Assembly: GCA_951812955.1 (NCBI GenBank)
Contig: OX638340.1
Location: 448,001 to 512,000, forward strand
Source of the DNA: an uncultured Gemmatimonadota bacterium
Lineage (GTDB): Bacteria; JAAXHH01
Direction: 5' to 3'
DNA: 64,000 nt
The notes under the pieces are model-generated. The model was not told the DNA's origin and did no database searches. It worked only from the letters and a program-made list of their open reading frames with translations. Made by a program: the position numbers and the translations under genes. Below are positions 1 to 24,945 of the stretch, one piece after another (position 1 is the first letter of the stretch; each line of letters begins with the position of its first letter).

Positions 1-293
1 CTCCGGCAGATTTCGGCCATGAGATCGCTGAAAATGTACGGACGCAGGCTGGGGTTCTCCCGGTGCCGATTGGAAACGAAGTACCTCTTGCCCTTGTGAT
101 TGATTCCCCGTGTGGTCTCGTCTGCCTCGGCCATCTGGGCTTCCATTTCCTCGGTCAGCCGATCGCACTCGCCGCGTATGTACGCCAGCATCGCGTCGTC
201 CATGGCCGACTCGAGGATGAAGTACCCTTCCTCTTGGTACTGCTCTTTCTGTTCTACCGTTATTTCGACAGGTTGCGCCTTGGTTTCCGTCAT
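1..293 (-). CDS. Phytanoyl-CoA dioxygenase (PhyH) family Fe(II)/2OG oxygenase, N-terminal part only (gene runs off the window edge)
   Basis: The minus-strand ATG overlaps the SDR stop (TAATG). The translation [46 protein letters not shown]... matches the typical PhyH N-terminus (EQ..Q..EDGY..L). Not listed in the ORF track because it is truncated. Confidence 0.55.
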   Translation of the reverse strand, partial: MTETKAQPVEITVEQKEQYQEEGYFILESAMDDAMLAYIRGECDRLTEEMEAQMAEADETTRGINHKGKRYFVSNRHRENPSLRPYIFSDLMAEICR

Positions 294-1051
294 TATCCCC
301 GTCCTATGTAGGGCATGGTCGTCGCCATGACTGTTATGAACTGTACGTTGGCGTCAAGGGACAAACCGGCCATGAAGACGATGGCGTCGGCCACGTTCTT
401 CACGTGCATCCGCGCCTCGGCCACCAGGTCGCCGCTCGGCTGCAGGATGCCCTCTTTCATCCGCTCCGTCATTTCCGTGGCCGCGTTGCCGATGTCGATC
501 TGGCCGCAGGCGATGTTGTATTTCCGGCCATCGAGGGAAGTCGAACGCGTCAAACCGGTTACGGCGTGTTTCGTAGCCGTGTACGGCGCCGAATTCGGCC
601 GCGGCACCTGGGCGGAAACCGACCCGTTGTTGATGATCCGGCCGCCTTGCGGGTCCTGGTCCTTCATGATCTTGAAGGCTTCCCTGGTACAAAGGAAGGA
701 ACCGGTCAGGTTGACGTCCACCACGGTCTGCCACTGTTCGGCCGTCAGTTCCTCTAGGAGTACCGCGGGCGCGCCGGTTCCCGCATTGTTGAACAGCAAG
801 TCCAGCCGTCCGTAGGCCGCCTTTGTTTCGGCGAAGAGACGTTCGACCTGCGAAGCATCGCCCACGTCCGTTGGGACGACGACCAGTCGATCCGCGGCGT
901 CGCCGGCTTCGGTCACGGTCGACTCCAAAGCTTCCCTTCTCCTTCCAGCAAGTACCACGCTGAAGCCCGCGTCAAGCAGGGCGAGGGAACAGGCCTTGCC
1001 TATCCCGGAACCCGCCCCGGTCACTACGGCGACTTTCTTACCTGCGCTCAT
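293..1051 (-). CDS. SDR family NAD(P)-dependent oxidoreductase
   Basis: 252 aa with an N-terminal [10 protein letters not shown] Rossmann motif, an NNAG motif and a Y..xK catalytic region (YTATK). Confidence 0.9.
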
Positions 1052-1278
1052 GCTGTGCTCCTATCTCAGGTGTAGATACAATGTTTATACGTCCCTCAGT
1101 TAATTTTACATCCATTTGGTTCTCGGTTATTCGTCCATCAGTTTACCGGGTATATACGTCGATCATCGCTATGGTCATGCTGTTTGTCGATTCGTCTCTG
1201 CAACTAACAAATCCGGGATGGCTCCTGCAATCTTTTTTCACGAATACGGGTCCGCTGCGTCATGCTCGGCATCATACA

Positions 1279-2352
1279 TCACGAATACGGATCCGCTGCG
1301 TCGCGCAAGGCGTCTCCCAGGAAGTTGAAGGCTATGACGACGACCAGGACGGGGGCTGCGGGAAACAGCAGCCATGGATGGTTGAGCAGCACGGTCACCC
1401 GCTGCGCTTCCTCGAGCAGGACGCCCCAGCTGGTCATGGGAGGCCGGATGCCCAGTCCGAGAAAACTCAGGGCGGTTTCGCCCAGGATCATGCCGGGGAT
1501 GGCCAGTGTGGCCACGACGATGATGTGGCTGTAGCACCCGGGCATCAGGTGGCGCGAGATGATGTACCAGTGTCCCGCGCCAGCAGACCGCGCTGCCGTG
1601 GTGTAATCCTGTTCCCGGAAAACGAGGACCTTGCCCCGGACTTCGCGCGCCAGGCCGCCCCAGCTGATGATGGACAGGATGATGGTGATGCCCAGGTAGG
1701 TTTCGATACTCGTCCACCCGGCCGGTAGCGCAGCCCCGAGGGCCATCCAGAGCGGAATTGGCGGAAAAGACGCCAGGATTTCGACGACACGCTGCAGGGC
1801 GTGGTCTATCCAGCCACCGAAGTACCCTGACAGCGTGCCCAGGACGGAGCCCAGGATCAGGCTGAGGAAAACGCCGATGATTCCTACCGTGAGGGAGACC
1901 CGGGCGCCGTGGAAGATGCGCGAGAGCAGGTCGCGCCCCATGCGGTCCGTACCGAGCAGGTACATGGGACCCGCTGAATGGACCAGCCGGAAGTCTCCGC
2001 CCCCGTCACGCGACAGAAACCGGACCGGGAACCGTTGAGAACGGTCCGTCTCGTACTCCAGTTCCAGCGTTTCCGGGTTCTGCGTGGAAGTCAGTCCGTT
2101 GACGTAGAACCCGGCGGACCAGTCGAAATGCAAATCCTGGGGTGGAAGATATCGGACCTGGATCCGGATGTCGTTGTGGTCGTACGGGGAGAAAAAACCG
2201 GCGAATAACGCCACCAGGTAGAACAGTCCCAGGATCGCCCCCGCCGCGATCCCCATGCGGTTCTTCCGGAACCGACGCCAAATCAGCGTGCGGTAGCTCA
2301 GATAGCCCGCATCCCGGACCGTTTCTGCCTGATCGACCGTGGTCGTAGTCAT
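1279..2352 (-). CDS. Peptide/nickel ABC transporter permease (DppC/OppC-like) with a long N-terminal periplasmic extension
   Basis: 357 aa. Multi-TM core with the BPD_transp_1 signature region (SIIAWGGLAREVRG...) and a C-terminal ...NFLGDALRDAADPY typical of DppC/OppC. Confidence 0.9.
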   Translation of the reverse strand: MTTTTVDQAETVRDAGYLSYRTLIWRRFRKNRMGIAAGAILGLFYLVALFAGFFSPYDHNDIRIQVRYLPPQDLHFDWSAGFYVNGLTSTQNPETLELEYETDRSQRFPVRFLSRDGGGDFRLVHSAGPMYLLGTDRMGRDLLSRIFHGARVSLTVGIIGVFLSLILGSVLGTLSGYFGGWIDHALQRVVEILASFPPIPLWMALGAALPAGWTSIETYLGITIILSIISWGGLAREVRGKVLVFREQDYTTAARSAGAGHWYIISRHLMPGCYSHIIVVATLAIPGMILGETALSFLGLGIRPPMTSWGVLLEEAQRVTVLLNHPWLLFPAAPVLVVVIAFNFLGDALRDAADPYS

Positions 2353-2355
2353 GGG

Positions 2356-2443
2356 TTTGCTCCGCTTGCGCCGCTTACTCCGAGAACGCTTGCTCCGCTT
2401 GTTCCGCTTAGTCCGCTTGCTCCGCTTTGTCCGCGAACGCTGC
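2356..2443. repeat. Imperfect tandem decamer repeat (TTGCTCCGCT-like, about 8 copies) in the intergenic spacer between two permease genes of one operon
   Basis: The plus strand reads tttgctccgcttgcgccgcttactccgagaacgcttgctccgcttgttccgcttagtccgcttgctccgctttgtccgcgaacgc. On the mRNA (minus) strand this gives AAGCGGA(G/A/C)CA repeats ending in a GGAG 7 nt upstream of the downstream ATG. Confidence 0.6.
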
Positions 2444-2466
2444 CATTCATTAAAAGGCCAACTGCA

Positions 2467-3453
2467 CTAGTCATATCGTATCCTCGGATCCGCCCAGGCC
2501 AGCGCGATGTCGGCCAGGATATTGCCGATGATCAGAAGCAGGCTGAACATCATCAGCAGGGTACCCGCCAGGTAAATGTCCTCGGCGACCAGGGCCCGTA
2601 GCAGCAGCGGCCCCACGGTAGGCAATCCCAGGACGATCGCCACGATCGTGGCCCCGGAGAGGATGTTGGGCAGGCTCATGCCCAGGATCGTGATCAGCGG
2701 ATTGATGGCGATGCGCGCCGCGTGCTTTATGACGACGACGGATTCCTTAAGGCCCTTGGCGCGGGCTGTCTGCACGAAAGGCTGGCCCAGGACGTCCAGC
2801 AGGTTGCCGCGCATGATACGCATGAGCCCGGCCGTGCCGTTGATGCCCACCACGATGACCGGGATCCAGAGGTGCTTCAGGAAATCGACAAGCTTGTCCC
2901 ATGTCCATGGCGCTCCTTCGTACTCGCTCGAGAAAAGCCCGAACAAGGGTATCCTGTAGATCTCGAACACGAAGACCAGGAGGGCCAGGGCCAGCAGGAA
3001 ACCCGGCATGGACATGCCGATGAAGCTGATGAAGGACAGCACGTTGTCGGATAGACGGTACTGGTGGGTGGCCGAGTAGATACCGATGGGTATCGCCACG
3101 GCGTAGGTGAACATCAGGGCGCCCAGGGCGATGAGCACGGTAAAGGCAAGCCGGTCCCAGATCAGCTGGTTGACTTCCTGCTCGTATTCGAAGGACTCGC
3201 CGAAATCGCCCACGACGAACCCTGATATCCAGTCCACGTACTGCCGCCACATGGGCTGGTCCAGGCCGTAACGTTCGCGAAGTTCATCGATGCGCGCGAT
3301 GGAGCTGCTGTCACCGTACATTTCTTCCAGCTCCTGGATCTTGCGGTCCAGGAAATCACCCTCCGGCAACTGGATGATGACGAACCCTATCATCGATATG
3401 GCCAGGAGGGTCGGGATGGCGAGGAGACAGCGCTGTATGACGTAATGGATCAT
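2467..3453 (-). CDS. Peptide/nickel ABC transporter permease (DppB/OppB-like)
   Basis: 328 aa. N-terminal MIHYVIQRCLLAIPTLLAISMIGFVII, a conserved ARAKGL motif, and the ...WADPRIRYD C-terminus typical of DppB. Confidence 0.9.
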   Translation of the reverse strand: MIHYVIQRCLLAIPTLLAISMIGFVIIQLPEGDFLDRKIQELEEMYGDSSSIARIDELRERYGLDQPMWRQYVDWISGFVVGDFGESFEYEQEVNQLIWDRLAFTVLIALGALMFTYAVAIPIGIYSATHQYRLSDNVLSFISFIGMSMPGFLLALALLVFVFEIYRIPLFGLFSSEYEGAPWTWDKLVDFLKHLWIPVIVVGINGTAGLMRIMRGNLLDVLGQPFVQTARAKGLKESVVVIKHAARIAINPLITILGMSLPNILSGATIVAIVLGLPTVGPLLLRALVAEDIYLAGTLLMMFSLLLIIGNILADIALAWADPRIRYD

Positions 3454-3518
3454 GGGTTAACCAGGGGACAGGCCGCGGTCCATGGACTGCCCGGCATGCG
3501 GTATGTGTGATCATCCCT

Positions 3519-5477
3519 TCAGTCGATGTAAAACTGCTCGGGGAAACTCGTCGCGGGACCCGCGATGGCCCACGGGCCGAGTATTCCGCTGTCGGGTACG
3601 TTATGGAAGTTGTTCTTCACGATGACGGGCTTGGGCGTACGAGCTACCGTGCCCAGATGAAAGGGTCCATGTTCGATGTGGATCCGCACGGCGTCCTGTA
3701 CCAGCCGATGACGGGCGTCCAGGTCCTTCTCCCGCTTGATCCGGTCGTAGATATCGAGCAGTGCGACCATGACGCCCGTGGGCGCCTCGCCCTTTTCGCC
3801 GCCCGTTTCGTACCACTTGCCCACCTTGGGATGCCAGTATTTCCCAGACGTTGGAAACACCCAGTCGGGGTAGGTGAACAGGTCCATTTCCGCCTCGCCG
3901 TGGAGATGGGCGGTGAACTCGCCGAGGTCGCGACGCAGTTTCAATTCGGCGCCGGGTGGCGTATAGACTAGGACGTCCAGTCCCAGTTCCCGCCAACCCT
4001 CGGCCACGATCAGGGCGACGTCATTCTCGTGGGCGATGTGCGCCGCCGCCGGCGCGTCCAGCACGAGGGTCAGCCGCTGGCCATCGGGACGAACCCGGTA
4101 CCCTTCGGCGTCACGGCGGGTAAGCCCCATCTCGTCGAGCAGCCTGTTCGCCATTTCCAAGTCGAATTCCGCGTCGGTAGCCTTCCACAGGTCGAAGAGC
4201 CGTGCGCCCTCCGTGTCCAGGAAATGCCAGCCTTCCTCGCTCACGGTGGCGCCCTGGGGCTCCACCAGGCCCTTGAAGGCGACGGCGTTGCATTTCTCGC
4301 GGTCGATGGCCGCGGCGAGGGCCTTCCGGAATCGCTGGTCTCGTATCAGGCCGCGGAGGACCGGGTCGTTGTCCGACCAGTTGAGGTTGATCGCGGGATC
4401 CGCGCCGGATGCACTCTCCCACAATTTGACCCGGTATCCGCCCTTTTCCCGGCTTTCCATGAAGAGCGAGAAGTCCCGCAGGTCGAGATCACGGAACTGG
4501 CAGTCCACTTCTCCGGCCAGCACCCGCAGGACCCGGATCTGAGACTCAGGGACCAGGGTCGTAACCACCCTGTCGATATAAGGCAACTGGCGCCCGTTGT
4601 CATCCACGACGTAGTAGTAGGGGTTGCGTTCCAGGATCACCCGGAATCCGCCCTTCTCGATGCGGGAGATCGTCCACGGCCACAGGGAAGGCTTTTCCGG
4701 GTTGCGCTGGGGCAGCCTGTGCTTCTCGTATAACACGAAGTCGTCCACCCCGGCGTTGTGGTCCGGATGGAACTGCTTCATGTAGTGTTCCGGCACGTTA
4801 TACTCTTCGCTCCACCAGAAGCCGGTCGCCAGCCACAGGGGCACGAGCCAGTTGGGCCCGGCGAATTTCATGACGATGGTGTAGTCGTCCGGTGTTTCCA
4901 CCTCCATGGGCTTGCCGTCCACGAGACACCACACGGGCGGCGGGTAACGGTGTCGGTCGTCGAGACACAGGTCGTACCACGCGCGGAAGGAAGCCGAAGT
5001 AAAGGGATGGCCATCGGACCACCGCACGCCCTCACGCAGTTTGAGGGTCAGCGCCGTGCCGTCCTCGTTAAACGCCCACGATTCCGCCAGGCCGGGCTCG
5101 AGGCCCGTGGTCATCCGGTTCCAACGGATCAGCGGGGCGTATCCGGCGATCATCTTCCAGGTGCCGAGGTCCGTATTGTTGTGCAATTGACGCCAGGTCC
5201 CGCCGTAGACTCCGGGACCATCGTACCCTTCGTAATCATTTTTGGCCACGAGCGGGTTGGCGGGGATCCGTTCGTGAAGGGGCGGCAGGTTGCCCTCAGC
5301 TACCCGGGCGGCCAGTTGTGGCGCTTCCAGCGACGAGCGGGCCGATGCGTCGGAAACCGGTACGTCCGATGCGGGTCCGCCGCCATTGCCGGTACAGGCC
5401 AGCAGTCCGGTCAGGGCAATAAGAGGCAGGTAATTCAGTATCTCTCTCGTTCTTCGTCTCATCCGTGACTCCAACAA
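3519..5477 (-). CDS. ABC transporter substrate-binding protein, family 5 (peptide/nickel/opine type), lipoprotein
   Basis: 652 aa. Signal peptide with the lipobox LLAC. Size and architecture match SBP_bac_5. It sits between the ATPase and permease genes. Confidence 0.85.
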   Translation of the reverse strand: MLESRMRRRTREILNYLPLIALTGLLACTGNGGGPASDVPVSDASARSSLEAPQLAARVAEGNLPPLHERIPANPLVAKNDYEGYDGPGVYGGTWRQLHNNTDLGTWKMIAGYAPLIRWNRMTTGLEPGLAESWAFNEDGTALTLKLREGVRWSDGHPFTSASFRAWYDLCLDDRHRYPPPVWCLVDGKPMEVETPDDYTIVMKFAGPNWLVPLWLATGFWWSEEYNVPEHYMKQFHPDHNAGVDDFVLYEKHRLPQRNPEKPSLWPWTISRIEKGGFRVILERNPYYYVVDDNGRQLPYIDRVVTTLVPESQIRVLRVLAGEVDCQFRDLDLRDFSLFMESREKGGYRVKLWESASGADPAINLNWSDNDPVLRGLIRDQRFRKALAAAIDREKCNAVAFKGLVEPQGATVSEEGWHFLDTEGARLFDLWKATDAEFDLEMANRLLDEMGLTRRDAEGYRVRPDGQRLTLVLDAPAAAHIAHENDVALIVAEGWRELGLDVLVYTPPGAELKLRRDLGEFTAHLHGEAEMDLFTYPDWVFPTSGKYWHPKVGKWYETGGEKGEAPTGVMVALLDIYDRIKREKDLDARHRLVQDAVRIHIEHGPFHLGTVARTPKPVIVKNNFHNVPDSGILGPWAIAGPATSFPEQFYID

Positions 5478-5493
5478 TCGAATTTTTGGCCGG

Positions 5494-6492
5494 TCAAACG
5501 CCCTGGAGAGACAGCGTGTCGCTGTAATGGCACGCCGCTTCGACGCCTCCGGGGTAGGTCTTCAGCGGGGGATCGGACTCCCGGCACAGGTCGGTTGCGT
5601 ATCGACACCTCGGATGGAAATAGCACCCTTTCGGCGGCGATGCGGGATCGGGCACGTCGCCGGGCAGGGCGATGCGCTTCCGTTTCTTCTGCACCGCGGG
5701 ATCGGCCACCGGCACGGCGGAGATCAGGGCCTCCGTGTATGGGTGGAGCGGGTTGTGGTAGACCTGTTCGGAGGGACCCGTTTCCACGATCCGGCCCAGG
5801 TACATGATCGCCACCCGGTCGCTGATGTGCTGCAGCACGCTCAGGTCGTGCGTGATGAAGATATAGGACAGGTCCAGGCGGTCCTTGAGCGAGACAAGCA
5901 GGTTCAGAATCTGTGACTGGACCGATACGTCCAGCGCCGATACGGGTTCGTCCGCTATGACCAGTTCCGGCCTCAGGGAAAGAGCCCGGGCGATGCCGAT
6001 GCGCTGGCGCTGGCCACCGCTGAAGGCGTGAGGATAGCGTCGCATGTCCGCTGCGTTCAGTCCCACGTCCGCCAGCAAGCCGGCTACTTGGTCTTCCAGC
6101 TCCGACCCCCGGGCCAGCCCGTTCACACGAAGGGGTTCCCCCACGATATCACCCACCGTCATCCGTGGATTGAGGGAGGAATTCGGATCCTGGAACACCA
6201 TCTGCATCCGGCGCCGGTAGGGCTTCATTCCACGCCGGTCAAGGGAGCTCAGATTCGCCTTCTCCGCACCGAAGTAAATATCGCCCTCCGTGGACGGGAT
6301 CGTCTTCAGCACGCAGCGTCCCAGGGTGGTCTTGCCGCAACCGCTTTCGCCCGCCAGTCCCAGGGTCTCCCCTGCGTCGCAGTGGAGATCCACGCCGTCC
6401 ACTGCCCGGACGTCGCCCCGCTTGCGGCGCCATAGCCCCTTGCGGACAGGGTAGTATTTCTTCAGGTTCCGCACCTCGAGAATGGTGGACAT
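5494..6492 (-). CDS. ABC transporter ATP-binding protein (DppF/OppF-like)
   Basis: Walker [13 protein letters not shown] signature LSGGQRQR, Walker B LVIADEP, and the C-terminal oligopeptide-ABC extension. I trimmed the start from the ORF-track start (6648) to the ATG at 6492, which is preceded by GGAG; the N-terminal 52 aa of the longer ORF have no ABC character. Confidence 0.9.
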
Positions 6493-6657
6493 GACGGGTG
6501 CTCCGTGGACATCTGCGTCTGGATGGATGAGGGCGCCGGTTGCTTCGAGGCCTGGTGGCGCTGCATGCTGGCGAACAAAACGGCAATCGCCGAAACACAG
6601 GTGGCCGGTCCTGCAAGCGGCCTGCCCACAAGCGGCCCGGGCCCGCAAACGGTCGGC

Positions 6658-7662
6658 CTATCGATCCAGAGCTACGCGTTCAACGTGCCAGCACCGTGCG
6701 CGGTGCCCTTCTGTAATTTCCTCTAACATTGGTTCCGTGGTGCACTGCTCCGTGGCGTACCGGCAACGAGGCGCGAATGCGCAGCCCTTCGGCAAGTTGA
6801 GCGGCGAGGGAACCGTACCCGGTATCGTAGACAGCATGGATGCCCTTTCTCGATTTATCCGCGGCGCCGAATCGAGCAGTCCCCTGGTATACGGATGGGC
6901 AGGATGGTAGAAGATCCTTTCGGGCGAGCCGGTTTCGACCACCTGCCCAGCGTACATGATCATGATTTCGTCGGCCATGTCGGCGATCACCCCCAGGTCG
7001 TGTGTGATCATCAGGATGGCCATATTATGGCTTTTCTGGAGTTCTCTCAGCAGGTCGAGGATCTGGGCCTGGATCGTCACGTCCAGCGCCGTGGTGGGCT
7101 CGTCGGCGATCAGCAGTTCGGGACCGCACGACAGGGCCATGGCGATCATGGCGCGCTGCCGCATGCCGCCGGACAATTCGTGGGGGTACTCATCCACCCG
7201 CTGCCGCGCACCGGGTATGCCGACCTCGGAAAGGGCCTGCACCGCGCGGGAACGGGCATGCTCCCGGTCCATGCCGTGGTGCAGGCGGAGGGCTTCGCCT
7301 ATCTGGTTCCCCACGGTGTATACCGGGTTGAGGGCGGTCATGGGTTCCTGGAAGATCATGGCGATTTTTCGGCCCCGGATTCTCCGCATTTCATCGCCAT
7401 TCTGCTCGAGATCGTGAATCCCGATGCCTGAACCGCCTTCCCGATCGTGAAGAACGATCTCTCCTTCCACGTAACCCGGTCTGGGAACCAGGCGCATCAG
7501 GGACAGCCCCATCATGCTCTTGCCGCAGCCGCTTTCACCGACCACACCGAGTGTTCTGCCTCGCCTGATCTGAAACGAAACGTCGCGCACGGCCCGGACG
7601 GGACCGTCGTCTGTGGGGATTATGGCGGACAGGTGCGATATATCGAGAAGGAGGTCGTGCAT
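6658..7662 (-). CDS. ABC transporter ATP-binding protein (DppD/OppD-like)
   Basis: Walker [10 protein letters not shown], signature LSGGMRQR, Walker B LLIADEPTTALD, and the C-terminal Cys-containing OppD-type extension. Confidence 0.9.
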   Translation of the reverse strand: MHDLLLDISHLSAIIPTDDGPVRAVRDVSFQIRRGRTLGVVGESGCGKSMMGLSLMRLVPRPGYVEGEIVLHDREGGSGIGIHDLEQNGDEMRRIRGRKIAMIFQEPMTALNPVYTVGNQIGEALRLHHGMDREHARSRAVQALSEVGIPGARQRVDEYPHELSGGMRQRAMIAMALSCGPELLIADEPTTALDVTIQAQILDLLRELQKSHNMAILMITHDLGVIADMADEIMIMYAGQVVETGSPERIFYHPAHPYTRGLLDSAPRINRERASMLSTIPGTVPSPLNLPKGCAFAPRCRYATEQCTTEPMLEEITEGHRARCWHVERVALDR

Positions 7663-7828
7663 ACAAGTTCATTGTAACGCCCTGTTCGAAGGGATGTCAA
7701 GGTGTACGGACGGTGGAGGCAGTGTAATTTTGAAGAAACCGGGGCGCTGGTTTGTAAGACTTAAAACTGTATTCTCTCATTCAACCCAAACGGATCTACC
7801 AGGTCTGGATTTATTCAAGGAGTCGAAT

Positions 7829-9079
7829 ATGCATGTGTCAGAAACAGCCCGGAATGCCTGGACACGTCGAGGATTCATGAAGGGCGCGCTCGCCGCCGGA
7901 ACGGCCGGTGTCGCACTGTCCATGTCAGACAGGATTGCGATGGCCACGCAGTTGATCACGGGCGGAAAGCCCACAATCGAAGCCATCCGGGGCGTAGGCG
8001 TCCAGCCTGGTCTCGTTCGCATGAGCCTGAATGAGAATCCGCTGGGACCGTCGCCGCGGGCCATCGAAGCCATGGCGAACCGGTTGTTCGGCGTCAACCG
8101 CTATGGTACGGACCTGAGCGATCTGATGCAGGCCCTGTCGACCTTCGACGGGGTGGAACTGCCCGAGCCGGACAATTCAAGGCGGCGCTCGTTTTTCCGT
8201 CCGCCTCCCGGCCCATTCATGCTGACCCCGGGATCCAGTCTTATCCTCGACCTGCTGTGCCTGGCCTATCTCAGCCGCGACGGCGGCGAAGTCATCGAAG
8301 CGGAGTATGGCTACGGGTCCGTTTCCCGATCCGCCAGTGGTTTCAATGATATGTTCGGCGTCGACGTCAACATCATCCGGGCGCCGATGACACAGGAATA
8401 CAAGCACGACCTGGACGGGATGGCTTCCCTGGCATCCGAAAAGACCTCTCTGGTGGTCATCACCAATCCGAACAATCCCACGGGCACGTTGCTGCAGCCC
8501 GATGAAATCGAAGCTTTCGTCAAAAAGGTCCCTTCTTCGGCCATCGTGGTCATCGACGAGGCCTATCTGCACTTCGCGGAGCAGGACCCGATTCCCTCGG
8601 CCATCCCGCTCGCCGTCAAGTACGACAACGTGGTCGTGGTGAGAACCTTCTCCAAGGCCTACGCGCTCGCCGCTGTGAGACTGGGTTACTGTGTTGCCTC
8701 GCAAAAGGTCCAGGACGAATTGCGGAAGTACTACCAGGAATCTCCGAATGCCCTGGCCAGCGTGGCCGGCGCCGCAGCTGTGCGCGATCTCGAGCATCTT
8801 CAGAAGTCCAGAGAAGCCGTATGGGACTTCAAAAAGCGCTGTTACGCAGCCTTCGACGAGATGGGGATCGAGTACCTGCCGTCCCAGGGTACCTTCGTGA
8901 TGGCCGACCTGAAGCGGTCGGCGATGCAGGTAGTCAGGGAAATGCGGACACGTAACGTCTGGATAAGTTCCCGACGCCAGCAGGAATTTAGAAACTGGAT
9001 CAGGGTTTCCGCCGGTACCGAAGCGGAAACCGAGGTATTCATCCAGACCCTCAAGGACGTGCTGGCCAAGTCCAGCTAA
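7829..9079 (+). CDS. Class I/II pyridoxal-phosphate-dependent aminotransferase (HisC-like) with an N-terminal twin-arginine (Tat) signal peptide
   Basis: The start is set at the ATG at 7829 (AAGGAG 7 nt upstream). The longer track ORF (from 7613) overlaps the divergent ATPase gene. The N-terminus carries TRRGFMKGALAAGTAGVALS, a Tat motif of the S/T-R-R-x-F-L-K type. Also present: NENPLGPSP, ITNPNNPTG, and the PLP-lysine region TFSKAYALAAVRLGY. Confidence 0.8.
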   Translation: MHVSETARNAWTRRGFMKGALAAGTAGVALSMSDRIAMATQLITGGKPTIEAIRGVGVQPGLVRMSLNENPLGPSPRAIEAMANRLFGVNRYGTDLSDLMQALSTFDGVELPEPDNSRRRSFFRPPPGPFMLTPGSSLILDLLCLAYLSRDGGEVIEAEYGYGSVSRSASGFNDMFGVDVNIIRAPMTQEYKHDLDGMASLASEKTSLVVITNPNNPTGTLLQPDEIEAFVKKVPSSAIVVIDEAYLHFAEQDPIPSAIPLAVKYDNVVVVRTFSKAYALAAVRLGYCVASQKVQDELRKYYQESPNALASVAGAAAVRDLEHLQKSREAVWDFKKRCYAAFDEMGIEYLPSQGTFVMADLKRSAMQVVREMRTRNVWISSRRQQEFRNWIRVSAGTEAETEVFIQTLKDVLAKSS

Positions 9080-9153
9080 GGCCTTTTCGGAATAGGCCTT
9101 GTTTTATTTGATGAGAAAGCCCAGCGGTGTGGTCGCCGCTGGGCTTTAGTTTT
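9078..9153. terminator. Two tandem GC-rich hairpins with T-runs, likely a bidirectional terminator between convergent genes
   Basis: aaggcc-ttttcggaat-aggcctt followed by gttttattt, then aagcccagcgg-tgtggtcg-ccgctgggctt followed by tagttttcg. Confidence 0.5.
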
Positions 9154-9180
9154 CGATGTAAGTGCAAGCCGTTCGGAATG

Positions 9181-9953
9181 CTATTTCATAAGGTTCCTGG
9201 ACTCCACCCTCAACCAGTCTCTCTCGCGCTTGATGGTCTCCAGGTCACCTCTTCTGTAAAAGAAGCTCCACGGTTCGATTCCTCTCCTTCCAAACGTGGA
9301 TATCCTCTCTATCTCCGATTCCTGGAGATCAAGAAGCACCTGGATGATGCGACTTGGAAAGAAACCTCCGTAGGCTTCGCAAAGCACATTTAGTCTATCT
9401 CTCAATACAGGCGGTTCTTCGTAGCCGACCTTCCGCCAGGATTCGCTGCCGCGCGCAGGGGTACAAGATACCAGGCGATCTGTGCCAAATCTGTCACAGC
9501 CTCACCCGGTTCGGCGAAATCCCAGTCTATTACGCCCTGCAGCACGCCATCATGCCAAATTGTGTTCCAGGGGCCGAGATCGCCATGACGTATAATCAGA
9601 CCAGGCTGCCACTTCACATCCGGCGCACACCATTCGGTTTCTTCGGGAGGGACGTAATCTTTCACCGCGAGATGGTAGGATTTGAGAAACCCGGCCAACT
9701 GGCTCAGGCCGCTATCGGTCTTGAGTACTTCGGGCCAGGGTCTTAAGCCGGCTTTACCTTCGATGTAGGACAGTTCTTCGTACCCGTCTTTTAAGTCTGC
9801 AACACGTGGAACGCGTCCAAGACCGGCATCTTCAAGAAATCTGAGCAAGCCGTGCACCGCCGATGTCCATCGGTTCACCGGGCGTCGTACCAGACTCCCA
9901 ATGTGTTCGACGGTGTTCAAGGCACCGCGATTCATGTCGCGACCAGAAGTCAT
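9181..9953 (-). pseudogene. Phosphotransferase (APH/CHK kinase-like) gene apparently disrupted by a frameshift near 9402-9440, with low GC content
   Basis: ORF 9402..9953 carries the kinase catalytic motifs IIRHGDLGPWNTIW and GVIDWDFAEPG but stops early. The adjacent ORF 9181..9405, in a different frame, continues with APH C-terminal-like sequence (RLNVLCEAYGG...). GC is visibly lower (about 48-55%) than the flanking DNA. There is an intact paralog at 53253..54209. Confidence 0.5.
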
Positions 9954-13093: not shown

Positions 13094-14437
13094 TCAAGCA
13101 GCCCCGGCGGCCCGTTCGTTGGCGGATACTACGCGAATCTCCCGGGTCAGACCGATCAATCCCACCAGGTTGGGAAACATCATGCAGGCGACCATGATGT
13201 CGCCCAGGTCCCAGATAACCCGTGCTTCGTAAACGGCCCCGAAAAATGCGGCCGCGCACCAGGCGATGCGGATGCCCCACACCACGCCCCGGGAATCCGT
13301 CACGAACCGGAGGCCCTGTTCGGCATAGTAGGACCACGTGACCATGGTGGTGAAACCGAACATGAGCGAGCAGAGCGCGACGATGACGCCGCCGAAGGGG
13401 ATCGAGGTGTTGAGCGCGGAAGCCACGAGCGCAGTACTGATTTCGCCGTTGTGCCACACGCCGGCGATGACTACGGTGACCGCGGTCATGGAGCAGACGA
13501 TTATCGTGTCGATGAAGACCCCGATCATGGAAATGTAGCCCTGCCGCATTGGTTTGGTCGTCCGGGCGGCGCTGTGGGCGATTCCCGCGCTGCCGAGCCC
13601 GGCCTCGCTGGATATGACGCCCCTGCGGATGCCGTACTGAACCGTACGTGCGATCGTGGCTCCTGCGAATCCTCCGATCGCCGCCACCGGGGTGAAGGCG
13701 CTCTCCACGATCAGCCACAGGGCCGCCGGCAGGGCTTCGATGTGTGTGAATACAACGTAACACACGCTGACGGCGTAAACGACCACCATGGTGGGTACGA
13801 GCCTTTCGGCGACGAGGCCAATACGCTTTATCCCGCCGATGATGACCACGGCCAGGATGACGGTCAGCAGGAGACCGGTGATCCACTTGGCCACGTCGAA
13901 CTGGGTGCTCATCACGAGGGCGATGGAATTCGCCTGGCCGATGTTGCCCCCACCCAGGCCACCCAACGTGGCGCAAAGGGCGAAGATGGCGCCAATGGTG
14001 GGCAGGTTCAGGCCCTCCTTCAGGTAGGACATGGGACCGCCGAGCATGAGGCCGTCCCGGGTCTTCCCCCGGTACCTCAGCGCCAGCACGGTCTCGGCAT
14101 ACTTCGTCGCCATGCCCAGGGGCGCCATGGCCGCCATCCAGAAGGCCGCGCCCGGGCCTCCGACTGCGATGGCCGTGGCCACGCCGGCGATGTTGCCGTT
14201 GCCGATGGTCGCCGCCATGGCGGTAGTCAGCGCCTGGAACGGCGATATGTCGCCTGAATCCTGCTCGCCCTTGTCCCGCCGCAGGGCGCCCCGCATGACC
14301 AGGCCGATGGCCGTGCCGAACTTCCGGAACTGGACTCCCCTGCTGGCCACGGTGAGCATGAGACCCAGGATGGCGAGCACACCGATCGTCCAGGGACCCC
14401 ACATGAAATCGGAAATCGCGCGCAGGACGGCATCCAT
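13094..14437 (-). CDS. Alanine/glycine:cation symporter (AGCS) family transporter
   Basis: Start set at MDAVLRAISDFMWGPW (ATG at 14437, GGAGAAAGAGG upstream). Multi-TM with AGCS conserved regions (FQALTTAMAATIGNGNIAGVATAI; GLGSAGIAHSAA). Confidence 0.9.
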   Translation of the reverse strand: MDAVLRAISDFMWGPWTIGVLAILGLMLTVASRGVQFRKFGTAIGLVMRGALRRDKGEQDSGDISPFQALTTAMAATIGNGNIAGVATAIAVGGPGAAFWMAAMAPLGMATKYAETVLALRYRGKTRDGLMLGGPMSYLKEGLNLPTIGAIFALCATLGGLGGGNIGQANSIALVMSTQFDVAKWITGLLLTVILAVVIIGGIKRIGLVAERLVPTMVVVYAVSVCYVVFTHIEALPAALWLIVESAFTPVAAIGGFAGATIARTVQYGIRRGVISSEAGLGSAGIAHSAARTTKPMRQGYISMIGVFIDTIIVCSMTAVTVVIAGVWHNGEISTALVASALNTSIPFGGVIVALCSLMFGFTTMVTWSYYAEQGLRFVTDSRGVVWGIRIAWCAAAFFGAVYEARVIWDLGDIMVACMMFPNLVGLIGLTREIRVVSANERAAGAA

Positions 14438-14648
14438 GGCGTACCTCTTTCTCCGAAGTCGAGTTGACGTTGAATGTAAACGGCTTAAACCGGGAGACAG
14501 GTTCAATCTACTGAGCCGTGGCGGTGATACAAGGGAAAGTAGGGAAAGTAAGCAGCGGCCGGTCCCTTAAGTCCTGTTTTCATTGTCACCGCCATTGACG
14601 GCTTTTATTTTGGGAGTTCACATCTTTTCCGCTTCATCCGGAGTTCCC

Positions 14649-15791
14649 ATGGCTTACCGGACATATGGGGTGCTGCTGGTGAGTTTCAGCAGGCACAGCC
14701 ACCAGCGCAGCTTCGTTCCCGCCTTCGTGGATCATCCCCGAGTCCGGATCGTCGGGGTTGCGGACGATAAGGACATCGACCCATATCTCGAACCGCTGAA
14801 CCGGTCCTGGGCCGACCGGCTGGGCGTACCCTATCACCAGGGCATCGAAGCGGCCGTGCGGCGGTCCGAAGTGGACATCGTGAGCATCGGTCACGAGATA
14901 GAACGGCGCGCCGAGATCGCTATGATGGCCGCGGACGCGGGGAAGCACCTGTGGATCGACAAATTCATCGGCGCCGACATGGACGAGTGCAACGCCGTCG
15001 TCGACGCCGTGGATGGATCAGGTGTCTCAACCATCCTTCCCAGTTACGTTTACAACGATCTTGTCAACCAGTTCCGAAGGATGATTAGTACGGGTTTTCT
15101 CGGCGAGTTGACGGCGATGCACGTCGATATCCTCTTCGCGAAAGGGATTCCCCGGTCCATCTCGAAGGCCCGGTGGAAAACGGATTTCCTGCCGCCGGGG
15201 AGATGGAAGTTCCCGGACATCAAGCGGGAGATTCTGACCGTCGGCGCCTACGCCGTGGCTCTGGTACAGCAGTGTTTCGAACCCATCGCGGAAGTGTACG
15301 GCCAGGGCGGAGCCTATTTCTTTCCGGAGCACGCCGCCCATGGCGCGGACGACTTCGGAACGCTGACGCTCGTCGATCGATCGGGCCGGGTGGCCTCCAT
15401 ATCGGCAGGCCGCAGCGGTATCGCGTCTCACGGAGCGGGCGGACCGAACCAGGCCTACCTCTTCGGCACGAAAGGCACGGGTCGGATCGACGGGAAGCGT
15501 CCGGGTGTCGACACCCACTTGAGAAACCGCATCGTTCATGGTGATTTCAGCGTTGGCGACGACGATCCCATGCAGTGGCACAGCGGTCCGCCCACGCTCC
15601 TGGCCTCAACCGGCCCCGACTTCTCGACCGAAGCGCTGAAGGACCTGGTAAACGCGCTGGACACCGGTGGCAGTCCCCGCTACACCGTCCACGACGCGCG
15701 GGATCTCATGGAAGTCCTGCTGGCCGGATACGATTCCATAGTCCGGCATGGATCCGTGCAACTGCCGGTACGGGGCAAGGAGGCCTCGTGA
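14649..15791 (+). CDS. Gfo/Idh/MocA family oxidoreductase
   Basis: Start at MAYRTYGVLLVSF (ATG at 14649, GGAG 5 nt upstream). The N-terminal Rossmann-like region is followed by a GFO_IDH_MocA C-terminal domain. Confidence 0.8.
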   Translation: MAYRTYGVLLVSFSRHSHQRSFVPAFVDHPRVRIVGVADDKDIDPYLEPLNRSWADRLGVPYHQGIEAAVRRSEVDIVSIGHEIERRAEIAMMAADAGKHLWIDKFIGADMDECNAVVDAVDGSGVSTILPSYVYNDLVNQFRRMISTGFLGELTAMHVDILFAKGIPRSISKARWKTDFLPPGRWKFPDIKREILTVGAYAVALVQQCFEPIAEVYGQGGAYFFPEHAAHGADDFGTLTLVDRSGRVASISAGRSGIASHGAGGPNQAYLFGTKGTGRIDGKRPGVDTHLRNRIVHGDFSVGDDDPMQWHSGPPTLLASTGPDFSTEALKDLVNALDTGGSPRYTVHDARDLMEVLLAGYDSIVRHGSVQLPVRGKEAS

Positions 15792-16663
15792 TTCCCATCG
15801 ACGGGCTGGTGATCGGCGGTAAGCAGGATTACGACCTGTTTCGGGAGGACACCGAAGGGCAGGCCGGCATGGCCTTCGCCGGGGTACCCGGAAGCATGCG
15901 CGACGGCGGGGGCGCTGGATCCGACGGAGAGACTACGGTTGCCTCTGCACCGGGTGTGTTCGAAGCATACCGGCCCCGCAGGGTCCTGTTCCTCTCCCCC
16001 TACCGGGGCATGGCCGCGGACGTTGAACGTCTAACGGCAAGCGGCGTCGAAGTGCGGACTGCCGGGCCGCTTCCCAGGTTTTCGCCTCGACGGATCCACC
16101 CGCCCATCGTCGATATGCAACATGCCGACCGAGGTTTCACGGCGATGCTGGAAATGAGCCGGGACGCCGATTTCGGAGAGCCGGTATATCTGAGGGTGAT
16201 TTCCTCCCCGGATGGCGGACGGTGGAGCAAGTGGTGGTGCGCTTTCCGGCAGTGCCGCATGGCCGGTGCCCTGCTTGGTGCTCGGCTGCGCAGGATATAC
16301 GTTGCATCCACGGGCAGCGCGGACCGGGGGCATGTGTCCATCACGCTGAAAACGGAACGTGATTCCACCGGTCATCTACTGGTCGCGTCACGTGGATCCG
16401 GACTGCGGGACGATGTGTTCTTTCTGGGTACCGGCGGCACACTCGCCGGAGATGCCCTGCTCAATCGACCGGGCGTGTACGACGGATCGAACTACAGGTT
16501 GCTACCGGACCCGGCCTTGAGACGCCTGGCCGATCTGTGGAATGCAGATGCGGTCGCCGAATTGAACGGCGCCGAATACCGGTTCTATTACGGCCTTCTT
16601 CGCGCGATCGGAAGGGCGTCCCGATCGGGGATTGGAATATGCCTGGATTACCCCGGTGTATGA
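15788..16663 (+). CDS. Hypothetical protein translationally coupled to the upstream oxidoreductase
   Basis: GTG start overlapping the upstream TGA (GTGA), preceded by AAGGAGG. 292 aa with no recognisable motifs. Several shadow ORFs on the opposite strand make it lower confidence. Confidence 0.45.
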   Translation: MIPIDGLVIGGKQDYDLFREDTEGQAGMAFAGVPGSMRDGGGAGSDGETTVASAPGVFEAYRPRRVLFLSPYRGMAADVERLTASGVEVRTAGPLPRFSPRRIHPPIVDMQHADRGFTAMLEMSRDADFGEPVYLRVISSPDGGRWSKWWCAFRQCRMAGALLGARLRRIYVASTGSADRGHVSITLKTERDSTGHLLVASRGSGLRDDVFFLGTGGTLAGDALLNRPGVYDGSNYRLLPDPALRRLADLWNADAVAELNGAEYRFYYGLLRAIGRASRSGIGICLDYPGV

Positions 16664-16711
16664 TGTTTTTGACTTCTGACAGGTCGCACACTGTAAGGGA
16701 TTCGTGATACC

Positions 16712-17701
16712 ATGACCGTGATTGCTTCTACCGCGGCCAACGTGGATTCGGACGAGACCGTTCGCGCGCCCGTCGCCTTCCACCAACGCATGCTGAAAAA
16801 TCCCATGGTCTGCGCGGGTGGCGGCATGGTCCTTTTCCTGGTGGTCATGGCACTGGCCGCGCCGGTCCTAACCGGACTGGGTTTCCTCGAGGATCCCATG
16901 CGCCAACTCTCTGACGGGCTGGACGCCGACGGACTGCCCATCCCGCCAGGGGACCGGTTCCTGATCGGGACGGACCACCTGGGCCGGGATATGCTGGCCC
17001 GGTTGGTTCACGGCACCCGTATCTCCCTGTTCGTGGGTATCGTGGCCATGCTGATCGCAGTCTGCGTCGGAGTGACCGTGGGCATGCTCGCGGGGTACCA
17101 CGGCGGCTGGGTGAACACTGTGCTTATGCGCGGGACCGACGTGATGCTGACGATCCCGGGCCTGCTTCTGGCTATCGCCTTAGCGGGGCTGATGGACGGA
17201 CGGGTGATTCACCTGCATCCCGATGCGCTGGACTGGCACGGGCTGGACATTACGCTCAAACGCGGACTCGTCAGCGTGTTCCTCGTCATCGGCCTGATCA
17301 GTTGGACCTGGATCGCCCGGACCATAAGGGGACAGGTCCTGGTCCTGAAGACCCGGGAGTTCGTCGCTTCATCGCAGGCCATCGGCTGTTCGGACGTACG
17401 TATCATGTTCCGGCACCTGTTGCCGAACGTCATGCCCCTGGTCATTGTGCTCGGTTCCCTGGCTACGGCGAATACCGTCCTGCTCGATGCCGGGTTGAGC
17501 TACCTGGGCGTCGGCGTGCCGCCGCCCACACCGTCTTGGGGAACCATGATCGCGGAAGGGCAGCCCTACTTCATCGTTTCTCCGCACCTTACCATCGCAC
17601 CGGGTGTGTCCATTATCGTGGCCGTGGTGGGATTCAACCTGCTGGGACAGGGCCTGCAAGAGGTGCTGGATCCTTATGTGAAGGATGGACAGGGGAAGTG
17701 A
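16712..17701 (+). CDS. ABC transporter permease (DppC/OppC-like)
   Basis: 329 aa. BPD_transp_1 signature region (LISWTWIARTIRGQVLVLKTREFVASSQAIG) and the ...NLLGQGLQEVLDPYV C-terminus. Confidence 0.9.
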   Translation: MTVIASTAANVDSDETVRAPVAFHQRMLKNPMVCAGGGMVLFLVVMALAAPVLTGLGFLEDPMRQLSDGLDADGLPIPPGDRFLIGTDHLGRDMLARLVHGTRISLFVGIVAMLIAVCVGVTVGMLAGYHGGWVNTVLMRGTDVMLTIPGLLLAIALAGLMDGRVIHLHPDALDWHGLDITLKRGLVSVFLVIGLISWTWIARTIRGQVLVLKTREFVASSQAIGCSDVRIMFRHLLPNVMPLVIVLGSLATANTVLLDAGLSYLGVGVPPPTPSWGTMIAEGQPYFIVSPHLTIAPGVSIIVAVVGFNLLGQGLQEVLDPYVKDGQGK

Positions 17702-17709
17702 ACGGGATC

Positions 17710-19389
17710 ATGGTTGCCTGCGGATCTTACCTGCGTAAGCGTATATACCGGTGGCGTATATACAATGTGTCTACAAACCCTCGATGCGGGATCCTGGTTC
17801 CCCTCTGGCTCGCGATCCTCTTCTTATCCGCGTCCTGTGGAGGAGACGGCCGGCTCGAGCGGCTGCATCCCGAGGAGAACGTGCTGCGGATCGCCGTACC
17901 GTCGGATCCACGATCGCTCGATCCGGCCATCGCCTACGACGTGGTGACCTGGCCGCTCGTGCGCACCCTGTTTCACGGTCTGGTCGACTATGACGACGAC
18001 CTGAATCTGGTACCCTGGCATGCGCGATCATGGACGATCTCCGAGGATGGACGGACGATCACTTTCAAACTGCGACAGGACATACGATTCTCGAACGGCC
18101 GGCCGATAACTTCCGAAGATTTCGCCTATTCCCTCCAACGGATTCTGAATCCAGCCGTCAAGTCCCCCGGACAGGGATTCTATCGGAATATAGCCGGTGC
18201 AAGAGCGTTTCAGGACGGTTCGGCGGACCGGGTCTCCGGCCTGCGCACCCCCGATCTGGAGACCCTCGAGATCGAGCTGGTCCAACCCGATCTGCCTTTT
18301 CTCTACTGTATCGCCATGCCCTTTGCCTATGCCGTTCCCCGCGAAGAAGTGGAGCGGCACGGGGACGAGTTCGGCCGGTATCCCGTGGGATCCGGCCCCT
18401 TCACGCTGGCGCGGTGGCAACGGGGCACGGGACTGAGGCTGGAGAAGAACCCGGGCTACTACCGGGCGGACGATATCCGGCTTGAAGCCATCGATCTGAT
18501 GGTCGGAGGGGATGAAACCCTGCATATGATGATGTTCGAGCGCGGCGAGCTGGATATCGCGAGTGTCACGTCAACGGGTATTCCTGACGCGGACTTTATC
18601 CGGGTTATGAACGATCCCGTGCTCAGCAAGCGCGTCGCCCACCAGCCGTTGAACGCCATTCAGTACCTTTCGATGAACACCGAACTGCCGCCTTTCGACA
18701 ACGTAAACGTGCGCAGGGCGGTAAACCACGCCATCGACCGCAAGCGTATCGTAGGCCTGATCAGCGACCGGGGGATTCCCGCCCGGGGCGTGCTGCCGCC
18801 CGGCATGCCGGGATTCAACGAAGCGCTCACAGGATATGACCACGACCCGGAAAAGGCCAGGACACTGCTCGAGGAGGCCGGATTTTCGGAAGGATTTACC
18901 ACCGAGCTCATGGTCACGGCCCAGAGCGGTATTGATTCCAAGATCGGACAGGCGGTGCAGCAGGACCTTGCAGAGGTCGGTATAACCGTGGAGATCAGGC
19001 CGGTGACCGGTCCAACGCGAATCGAAGCGACGGGCCGGCGCGGCGCGGTGCCCTTCGCCACCTTCGGCTGGTACCAGGACTATCCTGACCCGAGCAACTT
19101 CCTCGACGTGCTGCTGAATGGCAACCGGATCACAGAGGTACACAGCACCAACGTGGCGTTCTATGACAATGAGCGGGTCAATGCTTTACTGAACGAAGCG
19201 TCCTCCAGTACCGATCAGGGCCATCGACTGGCCCTGTACCAGGAAGCGGAACGGCTGATCGTGGATGACGCACCCTGGGTGTTTCTGTACTACCCGCAGA
19301 TGTACCTGCTTCGTCAGCCGTGGCTGAAGGGACTGAAGCTCAATCCGGTCTGGCCCATCCGCTACGAACTGATGTGGGTCGAACCATGA
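17710..19389 (+). CDS. ABC transporter substrate-binding protein, family 5 lipoprotein
   Basis: Start at the ATG at 17710, just after the permease stop. Signal peptide plus lipobox-like ...LFLSASCGG. Family-5 SBP length. The longer track ORF (from 17302) is the overlapping alternative frame of the permease. Confidence 0.85.
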   Translation: MVACGSYLRKRIYRWRIYNVSTNPRCGILVPLWLAILFLSASCGGDGRLERLHPEENVLRIAVPSDPRSLDPAIAYDVVTWPLVRTLFHGLVDYDDDLNLVPWHARSWTISEDGRTITFKLRQDIRFSNGRPITSEDFAYSLQRILNPAVKSPGQGFYRNIAGARAFQDGSADRVSGLRTPDLETLEIELVQPDLPFLYCIAMPFAYAVPREEVERHGDEFGRYPVGSGPFTLARWQRGTGLRLEKNPGYYRADDIRLEAIDLMVGGDETLHMMMFERGELDIASVTSTGIPDADFIRVMNDPVLSKRVAHQPLNAIQYLSMNTELPPFDNVNVRRAVNHAIDRKRIVGLISDRGIPARGVLPPGMPGFNEALTGYDHDPEKARTLLEEAGFSEGFTTELMVTAQSGIDSKIGQAVQQDLAEVGITVEIRPVTGPTRIEATGRRGAVPFATFGWYQDYPDPSNFLDVLLNGNRITEVHSTNVAFYDNERVNALLNEASSSTDQGHRLALYQEAERLIVDDAPWVFLYYPQMYLLRQPWLKGLKLNPVWPIRYELMWVEP

Positions 19390-19420
19390 AAAACAAGACG
19401 GACCATCGCGGAAGACCAAC

Positions 19421-20341: not shown

Positions 20342-20464
20342 CGATTTGCGGATCGGGGTCCTGCAAAGCGCTGCAGGTTGCTACGGCAACTGCCGCAACT
20401 GCTGCGACCCGCCGCACGCACGCGGACGCTAGCCGTAATCAGGAAATCAGCGCGGTGGCGCTGG

Positions 20465-21088: not shown

Positions 21089-21211
21089 GGCACGCCTTCC
21101 GCGAGTCGCCTGAAACCAACCAAAAAGACCTGTGCGAGTGTATTCCCGGAACGTATTATAATGAAGCCGAGATCACTTTTCCAAGAGTATATATCAGGAG
21201 GAGATGCACAT

Positions 21212-22300: not shown

Positions 22301-22356
22301 GTGGGAGGAATGTTACACGCGGCGGTACGGCACGTGCACCGGTCCGCGGGAGCATA

Positions 22357-23610: not shown

Positions 23611-23645
23611 GCGCGGTTTGATTACTTGTACATTTATTGTGTGGT

Positions 23646-24803: not shown

Positions 24804-24945
24804 GTTGTTCGTTCCGCTCGGGCGGTAAATGATGGTTGATTTCAGCCGTGGTACCGCGTAATTTGCTATGGGCCTCGCGCCGCGAGTCCGGCGGCGAGCG
24901 TACCCCAAGATATAGGTATGCACTCAAAAAAAGCAAGGCGATCAA

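Follow-up and report, generated by a model that had tools for sequence, protein, structure and literature searches.

Is the HisC-like aminotransferase encoded at positions 7829..9079 of this stretch of DNA exported from the cytoplasm and, if it is, on what would it act? The stretch, hereafter the window, comprises 64,000 nucleotides of contig OX638340.1 of an uncultured Gemmatimonadota bacterium. A sequence-only reading had described the product as an enzyme dependent on pyridoxal phosphate (PLP) that carries a textbook signal peptide of the twin-arginine translocation (Tat) pathway, and had placed its gene back to back with a peptide importer of the ATP-binding cassette (ABC) type. We find a genuine Tat signal in front of an intact HisC-type PLP domain, and we consider it likely that folding and the binding of PLP at Lys276 take place in the cytoplasm, that the Tat pathway then exports the folded protein via a cleavable signal of 39 residues (from TRRGFMK to AMA, before T40), and that the enzyme, once cleaved after Ala39, performs transamination in the periplasm. 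The features on which this reading is built are the following.

7829..9079, plus strand: aminotransferase open reading frame (ORF), 416 aa, with ATG at 7829-7831 and TAA at 9077-9079
7817-7822, plus strand: Shine-Dalgarno sequence (SD) AAGGAG, 6 nt 5' of the ATG, read directly
7829..7945, plus strand: Tat signal peptide, residues 1-39, with TRRGFMK at 7862-7882, h-region at 7883-7927 and c-region DRIAMA at 7928-7945
7946..9076, plus strand: predicted mature enzyme, residues 40-416, a fold-type I HisC-like PLP domain
8150..8215, plus strand: subfamily-specific insertion, about residues 108-129, ELPEPDNSRRRSFFRPPPGPF (alignment A1, columns ~130-178)
8654-8656, plus strand: codon of the Schiff-base Lys276, aligned to E. 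coli HisC K214

Signal peptide and start codon

The product begins with MHVSETARNAWTRRGFMKGALAAGTAGVALSMSDRIAMA, which is followed by TQ after the predicted cleavage site. The n-region contains the motif T12-R13-R14-G15-F16-M17-K18, which fits the Tat consensus S/T-R-R-x-F-L-K. It is followed by an h-region (G19-S33) of 15 uncharged residues, where a minimum of 12-13 is expected, with a mean Kyte-Doolittle value of 1.28 and by a c-region (D34-R35-I-A37-M-A39) in which a basic R35, of the Sec-avoidance kind frequent in Tat signals, is combined with an AxA site, with cleavage predicted before T40. Residues 1-45 alone match the model TIGR01409 TAT_signal_seq at 24.4 bits (E 2.6e-5; cut-off 16.7), so that both the profile and the three regions agree with the textbook signal described earlier. 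When a TATFIND-like rule was run over the six reading frames of the 64-kb window, on each ORF of 150 aa or more and from every possible start, the aminotransferase ORF was the sole one to pass. The general annotation of the window identified no tat genes among its annotated ORFs. A second Tat-type protein, a Gluconate_2-dh3 subunit with the motif SRRSFL, is encoded on a 4.2-Mb contig on which the window protein has an ortholog with 91% identity as well. When a HisC-like PLP enzyme bears a real Tat signal, export in the folded, cofactor-loaded state is the natural reading, and this part of the earlier proposal is retained as the expected route.

The start codon was assessed by comparing 21 related genomes, which hold the orthologs at 82–99% identity (L014-L033) and one ortholog at 63% (L004). 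The ATG and the GGAG core of the SD are conserved in 21/21 loci while 56 of 60 upstream positions vary, which indicates that the start codon is genuine, and the ORF boundaries given in the sequence-only reading prove exact when the ATG and TAA are read. Variable sites within the first 45 codons are distributed over the three codon positions as 21/9/34, a coding signature which shows that the signal region is translated.

The motif itself is conserved well beyond these genomes. Of the 120 database homologs nearest to the protein, about 100 have the twin arginines, with identities as low as 37%, and an alignment of 80 sequences retains R13 in 76, R14 in 78, F16 in 77, A39 in 79 and A37 in 59 of them. 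All true orthologs, at 60–99% identity, keep both arginines. Neither a missing N-terminal extension nor a start at a downstream Met, the two outcomes that the sequence-only reading had named as counting against it, is found among these orthologs, in which SD, ATG and RR are all conserved. A mis-called start or a chance RR motif was considered as an artefact and rejected on the basis of the conserved SD and ATG, the coding-type substitutions and the family-wide conservation of the motif.

Some more distant members of the clade deviate from this pattern. Three relatives without any signal (P0102, P0104 and P0114) are 43–44% identical to the window protein and are not orthologs; the signal-less homolog of locus L118 (6001-7119) has an in-frame stop 12 codons upstream. 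Other members (P0093-P0097, P0100) bear Sec-type signals instead of Tat signals. We interpret the missing signals and the Sec-type signals alike as changes that arose secondarily within an exported clade. The Sec-type members raise the question of how they acquire PLP. A metagenome scan with patterns from the family alignment (NPNNPTGT, RTFSK, NENP) returned mostly canonical cytoplasmic HisC, with a Tat motif in 5 of the 17 loci checked.

Fold, active site and family

The predicted mature part is a HisC-like PLP-dependent aminotransferase domain, as had been proposed: it matches Pfam PF00155 Aminotran_1_2 (E 6.8e-44, 150.9 bits, cut-off 19.7), it has a HisC-type fold and its PLP residues are intact. 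The AlphaFold model has a mean predicted local distance difference test (pLDDT) of 88.9 with only the signal disordered (pLDDT below 50 for residues 1-32), and Foldseek places two HisC structures, 3ffh and 3ly1, at the top (E 5e-30, TM-scores up to 0.73/0.88). The conserved PLP residues, given as window protein/E. coli HisC, are Y92/Y55, Y162/Y110, N216/N157, D243/D184, Y246/Y187, T273/T211, S275/S213, K276/K214, R284/R222 and R392/R335. Arg392 in this list is invariant; it corresponds to Arg335, which binds the carboxylate/phosphate in HisC.

The substrate-recognition side of the active site is different. We take Tyr20, Asp85, Arg322 and Arg335 to be the residues that recognise histidinol phosphate in E. 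coli HisC, as described in the structure papers, and of these four only Arg335 is kept, the others aligning to Leu42, Ser137 and Ser380, respectively. The N-terminal arm of HisC, PYxPGKP, is replaced by another conserved arm, TG..p.iE.IrG.GV.PG. An insertion of about 20 residues (the feature at residues 108-129 listed above) is missing from canonical HisC and from PRK09105-like sequences, and this region is modelled less confidently (pLDDT 73–75 for residues 111-130).

Scores against curated families are in concordance with this picture. The hisC equivalog TIGR01141 gives 211.7 bits, below its cut-off of 276.55, and there is no his-operon context around the gene in the window or in the related locus L001. 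Because of the sub-threshold TIGR01141 score, the replacement of Tyr20, Asp85 and Arg322 and the lack of a his operon, the protein is evidently an intact HisC-type PLP enzyme but not a histidinol-phosphate aminotransferase. The best NCBIfam match is PRK09105 (NF006580) with 220.9 bits, short of its cut-off of 444; in this alignment profile position 4 falls on query residue 10, so the signal is covered. The model of PtaA, a Tat-exported transaminase of Pseudomonas, scores 169.6 bits with a cut-off of 500 (NF051461), and the CobD decarboxylase model scores 127.5 bits, the HisC-like superfamily also including GntC and VioD.

We then placed the protein among its relatives. An exhaustive search of 1.84 billion cluster representatives yielded 26,672 relatives at E values up to 0.001, and a neighbour-joining tree was built from the mature domain only of the 139 closest representatives of 50%-identity clusters, length-filtered and with a few references added. 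The Tat motif is present in 48 of the 139 sequences, and on this tree the Tat-bearing sequences cluster with only 5 parsimony state changes; some of the apparent exceptions are Tat or Sec signals which the scoring rule missed. In ten sampled Tat-bearing relatives PRK09105 is the first or second match and none reaches a cut-off, while their alignments to the PtaA model begin at profile positions 1-32, mostly 1-17. Taken together, the exported HisC-like enzymes form an old, large and nearly monophyletic group of which the curated families cover a small part, and we read the window protein as a member of an uncharacterised subfamily and an ortholog of neither PtaA nor biosynthetic HisC.

The neighbouring importer, the substrate and alternative roles

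The second part of the question, on what the enzyme would act, leads to the genes and control elements around it.

293..7662, minus strand: whole divergent operon, with the Opp-type domains oligo_HPY, OppC_N and SBP_bac_5
6658-7662, minus strand: ABC ATPase 1 (Pfam)
5494-about 6492, minus strand: ABC ATPase 2 (Pfam)
3519-5477, minus strand: SBP_bac_5 lipoprotein (Pfam; lipobox LLAC), the substrate-binding protein (SBP)
2467-3453 and 1279-2352, minus strand: permeases (Pfam)
293-1051, minus strand: short-chain dehydrogenase/reductase (SDR; Pfam)
7730..7758, plus strand: candidate aminotransferase promoter, TTGAAG (7730-7735), 17-nt spacer, TGTAAG (7753-7758)
7671..7700, minus strand: promoter-like site of the divergent ABC operon, TTGACA-18-TACAAT, 11/12 matches in the consensus scan
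9080..9147, plus strand: terminator region, hairpin GGCCT-9nt-AGGCC (9080-9098), then TTGTTTTATTT, and a 14-bp hairpin (9116-9147), then a T-run

The divergent arrangement with an ABC importer is present as described, with a gap of 166 nt (7663-7828) between the ATPase gene, which starts at 7662 on the minus strand, and the aminotransferase gene, and it persists in orthologs at 60–63% identity. An alignment of 13 genomes leaves few conserved blocks in this gap, and these are the promoter-like hexamers of both strands and the SD. Both minus-strand hexamers lie within invariant or near-invariant blocks; on the plus strand TTGAAGA and (T)TTGTA are invariant in an otherwise variable region, which makes TTGAAG-17-TGTAAG the candidate promoter of the aminotransferase gene, uncalled by the consensus scan because each hexamer has only 4/6 matches. 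As the –35 element of the ABC operon lies 30 nt from that of the plus strand, the two promoters would stand back to back, and no obvious operator shared between them was seen in the intergenic region of the 13 genomes. An Rfam search of 7400-9500 gave a sub-threshold chance match only, with no riboswitch or leader.

Downstream, one hairpin (9080-9098) was read directly from the sequence and the other (9116-9147) was called by a scan. Since two hairpins with T-runs follow the stop codon, these elements indicate that the gene is monocistronic, with its own predicted promoter and terminator. An APH-family phosphotransferase ORF on the opposite strand (9402-9953) measures 183 aa as compared with 255 aa in L001; it is undetected in about half of the otherwise syntenic genomes and looks decaying or variable. 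In the ABC operon, the mechanical start of ATPase 2 (TTG at 6648, 384 aa, ORF 5494-6648) is probably too far upstream: its ortholog in L001 has 332 aa, which fits an internal ATG near 6492.

We next asked how far the pairing of the two units extends. The locus is 99% identical to a chromosome of a metagenome-assembled genome (MAG), OY762445.1, and to a Gemmatimonadetes bin, and 20 species-level MAGs, under the labels Gemmatimonadetes or Latescibacterota, hold orthologs. All 20 close genomes show the same arrangement, ftsH and the gene of an extracytoplasmic function (ECF) sigma factor included. The divergent pairing is also kept in three distant orthologs, at 63% (L004), 61% (L036) and 60% identity (the P0025 contig), where the other flank differs: it carries a methyltransferase gene plus ABC genes, an RND efflux system or genes without an assignment. 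The divergence of the SBP (65–73% identity) parallels that of the aminotransferase (61–63%). The pairing that survives beside a differing flank and the in-step divergence of the SBP are, in our view, moderate evidence that the aminotransferase and the importer operon may be functionally linked.

The enzymes and binding protein of this operon bear on the substrate class. Among solved relatives the SBP matches 5ipw at 278 bits, the pectin-oligosaccharide binder SPH1118 at 223 bits and an alpha-galactoside binder at 89 bits; thus two of the three closest bind pectin oligosaccharides or alpha-galactosides (SPH1118: PMC9314435). Characterised peptide binders reach only about 27–30 bits (DppA about 27). 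The SBP thus lies far nearer to SPH1118 and the alpha-galactoside binder than to OppA or DppA, so that oligosaccharides may be the cargo of the transporter. In relatives (L001) the operon continues past the position of the window edge with a PhyH dioxygenase and a ManD-like dehydratase, so that its enzymes are an SDR, a PhyH dioxygenase and a member of the ManD/galactonate-dehydratase family, with no peptidases. The neighbouring MR_MLE proteins score 315–367 bits with the ManD/galactonate dehydratase models. A dehydratase directly adjoins the aminotransferase in L004 and L036, and that of L036 passes the galactonate-dehydratase cut-off (314.6 versus 311). A dipeptide-epimerase identity was tried for the MR_MLE neighbours and rejected, the L-Ala-D/L-Glu epimerase model giving only 29–54 bits with a cut-off of 500.

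A similar environment surrounds more distant members. Distant Tat-bearing homologs are encoded among genes for NAD-dependent epimerases, an aldehyde dehydrogenase, xylose-isomerase-like TIM barrels, Gfo/Idh/MocA proteins and the galactonate-dehydratase family. A Tat-bearing paralog with 40% identity, located on the same 4.2-Mb contig as the 91% ortholog, lies directly 3' of the Gluconate_2-dh3 small subunit (the SRRSFL protein above) and of a signal-less GMC flavoprotein (L011 5586-9272; L012 5588-9272). Judged from its gene content, this set looks like a periplasmic dehydrogenase-plus-aminotransferase operon.

On this evidence we tentatively suggest that the substrate is a carbohydrate-derived amine or carbonyl compound in preference to a peptide or free amino acid, and that its conversion is connected with uptake by the neighbouring importer. 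The enzyme would interconvert amine and carbonyl groups on an amino sugar, an amino sugar acid, a keto acid or a keto sugar, before or alongside import. A more speculative extension, to which we attach a lower probability again, is that the subfamily defines an unrecognised periplasmic transamination step in carbohydrate catabolism that precedes oligosaccharide uptake by an Opp-type system and uses a carbohydrate-derived keto compound as amino acceptor. In this version the substrates would be keto sugars or keto acids, either products of periplasmic enzymes of the GMC/gluconate-2-dehydrogenase type or derivatives of uronate oligosaccharides, or else amino sugars and amino sugar acids.

Several points weigh against this interpretation. 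Adjacency in the 20 closest genomes says little, because the whole region is syntenic and the unrelated ftsH and ECF sigma factor genes are equally conserved, so the pairing draws its support from only three more distant orthologs, and homologs at 40–53% identity occur in other contexts. The neighbour-joining tree carries no support values. The best solved relative of the SBP, 5ipw, is named a putative oligopeptide binder, so a peptide ligand keeps some probability. HisC-like folds also serve decarboxylases (CobD) and other chemistries, and the reaction would need a periplasmic source of amino donor or acceptor, as would that of PtaA.

The sequence-only reading had placed the step at peptides or amino acids, with a periplasmic transaminase tied to an Opp/Dpp-type peptide importer, and we consider this version unlikely. 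The Opp-type domains of the transporter, the annotation of 5ipw, the occurrence in the window of a Na:alanine symporter, an M3 oligopeptidase and an M55 D-aminopeptidase, and the pairing kept in the 60–63% orthologs all agree with it, but the characterised peptide binders match the SBP far more weakly than SPH1118 does, the operon encodes ManD/galactonate-dehydratase, PhyH and SDR enzymes and no peptidases, and the dipeptide epimerases resemble the MR_MLE proteins only weakly. The label of peptide importer, taken from the Opp-type Pfam domains alone, is therefore doubtful with an SBP that is nearer to oligosaccharide binders. The proposed tie to uptake has some support in the pairing kept by the distant orthologs, while the peptide or amino-acid substrate is not the best-supported guess because of the sugar-acid enzymes of the operon.

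Quite unlikely, too, appears an exported enzyme that is not a soluble periplasmic transaminase, whether because a PLP decarboxylase, lyase or cyclodehydratase has been built on the HisC scaffold or because an uncleaved signal anchors the protein in the membrane. The superfamily does include CobD, GntC and VioD, and the subfamily has a new N-terminal arm and the 20-residue insertion; the best family matches, however, are all aminotransferases and Arg392 is invariant. As for the anchor, the AlphaFold model draws residues 13-44 as a single long helix, but A39 at –1 of the AxA site is kept in 79/80 sequences, which favours cleavage.

An improbable alternative is a tailoring enzyme for a secreted metabolite, either a siderophore or another exported natural product, as PtaA is for pyoverdine. 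Such tailoring is the sole experimentally characterised role in the clade, PtaA homologs also occur in bacteria that do not make pyoverdine (PMC6206403), and a monocistronic gene with its own promoter would suit this role. Against it, the score with the PtaA model is about a third of the cut-off, the surroundings of the gene in the window, L001, L004 and L036 contain no nonribosomal peptide synthetase (NRPS), polyketide synthase or siderophore genes, and the only TonB-dependent receptor is 35 kb away.

Finally, the reading as a normal histidinol-phosphate aminotransferase of the cytoplasm, its start mis-called and its RR motif due to chance, for which one could cite the 211.7 bits with TIGR01141, the in-frame downstream Met codons M17, M32, M38 and M65 and the few signal-less clade members including that of L118, is strongly disfavoured and very improbable given the sub-threshold score and missing his operon, the protein-level conservation of the motif in about 100 homologs, the conserved SD and ATG with coding-type substitutions, the replaced PYxPGKP arm with its Tyr20 and the mere 43–44% identity of the signal-less relatives, which are not orthologs.

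The preferred reading, a Tat-exported transaminase that may act on carbohydrate-derived compounds, matters because little work exists on PLP chemistry in the periplasm: the searchable literature has only PtaA and PvdN as studied cases, while Tat-bearing HisC-like enzymes form a large group across many lineages (the 48 tree representatives mentioned above). One of its subfamilies repeatedly adjoins sugar-acid dehydratases, periplasmic dehydrogenases and an oligosaccharide-type importer, and this association is a testable lead in a class almost unstudied beyond PtaA. A true carbohydrate link would mean a type of extracytoplasmic step that is new to the catabolism of sugars or amino sugars in uncultured bacteria, marine and host-associated; a false one would leave the protein as a further unassigned case in a class already known. 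If a keto compound is indeed the acceptor, this would address how PLP is regenerated from pyridoxamine phosphate outside the cytoplasm.

The rest of the window contains further uptake and catabolic genes. A second SBP_bac_5 ABC system lies at 16712-20341, and uptake or sugar-type genes include the Na:alanine symporter (13094-14506), a weak Gfo/Idh/MocA match (14583-15791) and a DUF2961 protein (21083-22300). The interval 13094-28161 also holds an MFS transporter, the M3 oligopeptidase (24946-27036) and a further Gfo/Idh/MocA gene (27082-28161). Between 38946 and 58938 there are a double amidohydrolase of 1019 aa, the TonB-dependent receptor (44053-46248), a pyrroloquinoline quinone (PQQ) dehydrogenase (46984-49038), a sulfatase (54321-55769) and a dimethylformamidase-like protein (56707-58938), which by their predicted functions is a typical repertoire of a scavenging heterotroph. 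Large DUF6785/DUF6784 proteins are encoded twice in the window, at 31785-33770 and 60949-62931, both on the minus strand, and another directly 3' of the signal-less aminotransferase homolog (L118 7153-9228); this recurrence may be a coincidence.

Comparison with known systems

With E. coli HisC (1FG3/1GEX) the window protein has the fold and all PLP-binding and catalytic residues in common. In contrast to it, HisC is cytoplasmic and has no signal, whereas the window protein falls below the equivalog cut-off and has no his operon; histidinol phosphate is not known as a metabolite of the periplasm. Among PDB sequences the closest match is 3LY1, a putative histidinol-phosphate aminotransferase of Pectobacterium atrosepticum (2.7e-32, about 25% identity). 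PRK09105 is closer in that it is the best NCBIfam match with the signal included, but its members do not have the insertion at residues 108-129.

The sequence-only reading had set the Tat signal against a class of normally cytoplasmic enzymes, but a Tat-exported aminotransferase is not unprecedented: PtaA is already characterised, and the signal region is reached by both the PRK09105 and the PtaA models. The Tat system of Pseudomonas carries PtaA, a PLP transaminase, together with its cofactor, and how PLP is regenerated in the periplasm is unexplained (PMC6206403). We found no other Tat-exported aminotransferases in the searchable literature beyond the pyoverdine system. In that system PvdN is likewise a Tat-exported PLP enzyme of Pseudomonas that has its cofactor bound, is active in the periplasm and takes part in pyoverdine tailoring (PMC6206403). 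Unlike the proposed reaction, PvdN makes succinamide from glutamate, and it is an enzyme separate from PtaA; we draw it as an analogy and do not claim relatedness.

PtaA is the nearest counterpart, although the window protein is not its ortholog, as it reaches 169.6 bits with a cut-off of 500. The window protein is about 40–55 residues longer, with a distinct N-terminal arm and the insertion, comes from a different phylum and has catabolic and transport genes as neighbours. PtaA acts on the glutamate side chain of pyoverdine, whereas the window gene is outside any pyoverdine context, no pvd or NRPS genes being found in the window or in related loci. The kind of enzyme, a Tat-exported HisC-like transaminase, is thus already known, and what the window appears to add is a subfamily which is itself not characterised. 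What the two proteins share is the architecture: like PtaA of Pseudomonas fluorescens, the window protein is a HisC-like class I/II PLP aminotransferase behind an N-terminal twin-arginine signal (Ringel, Draeger, Brueser 2017, reviewed in PMC6206403), and the course that PtaA itself takes, exported folded with PLP and acting in the periplasm, is the one predicted for the window protein.

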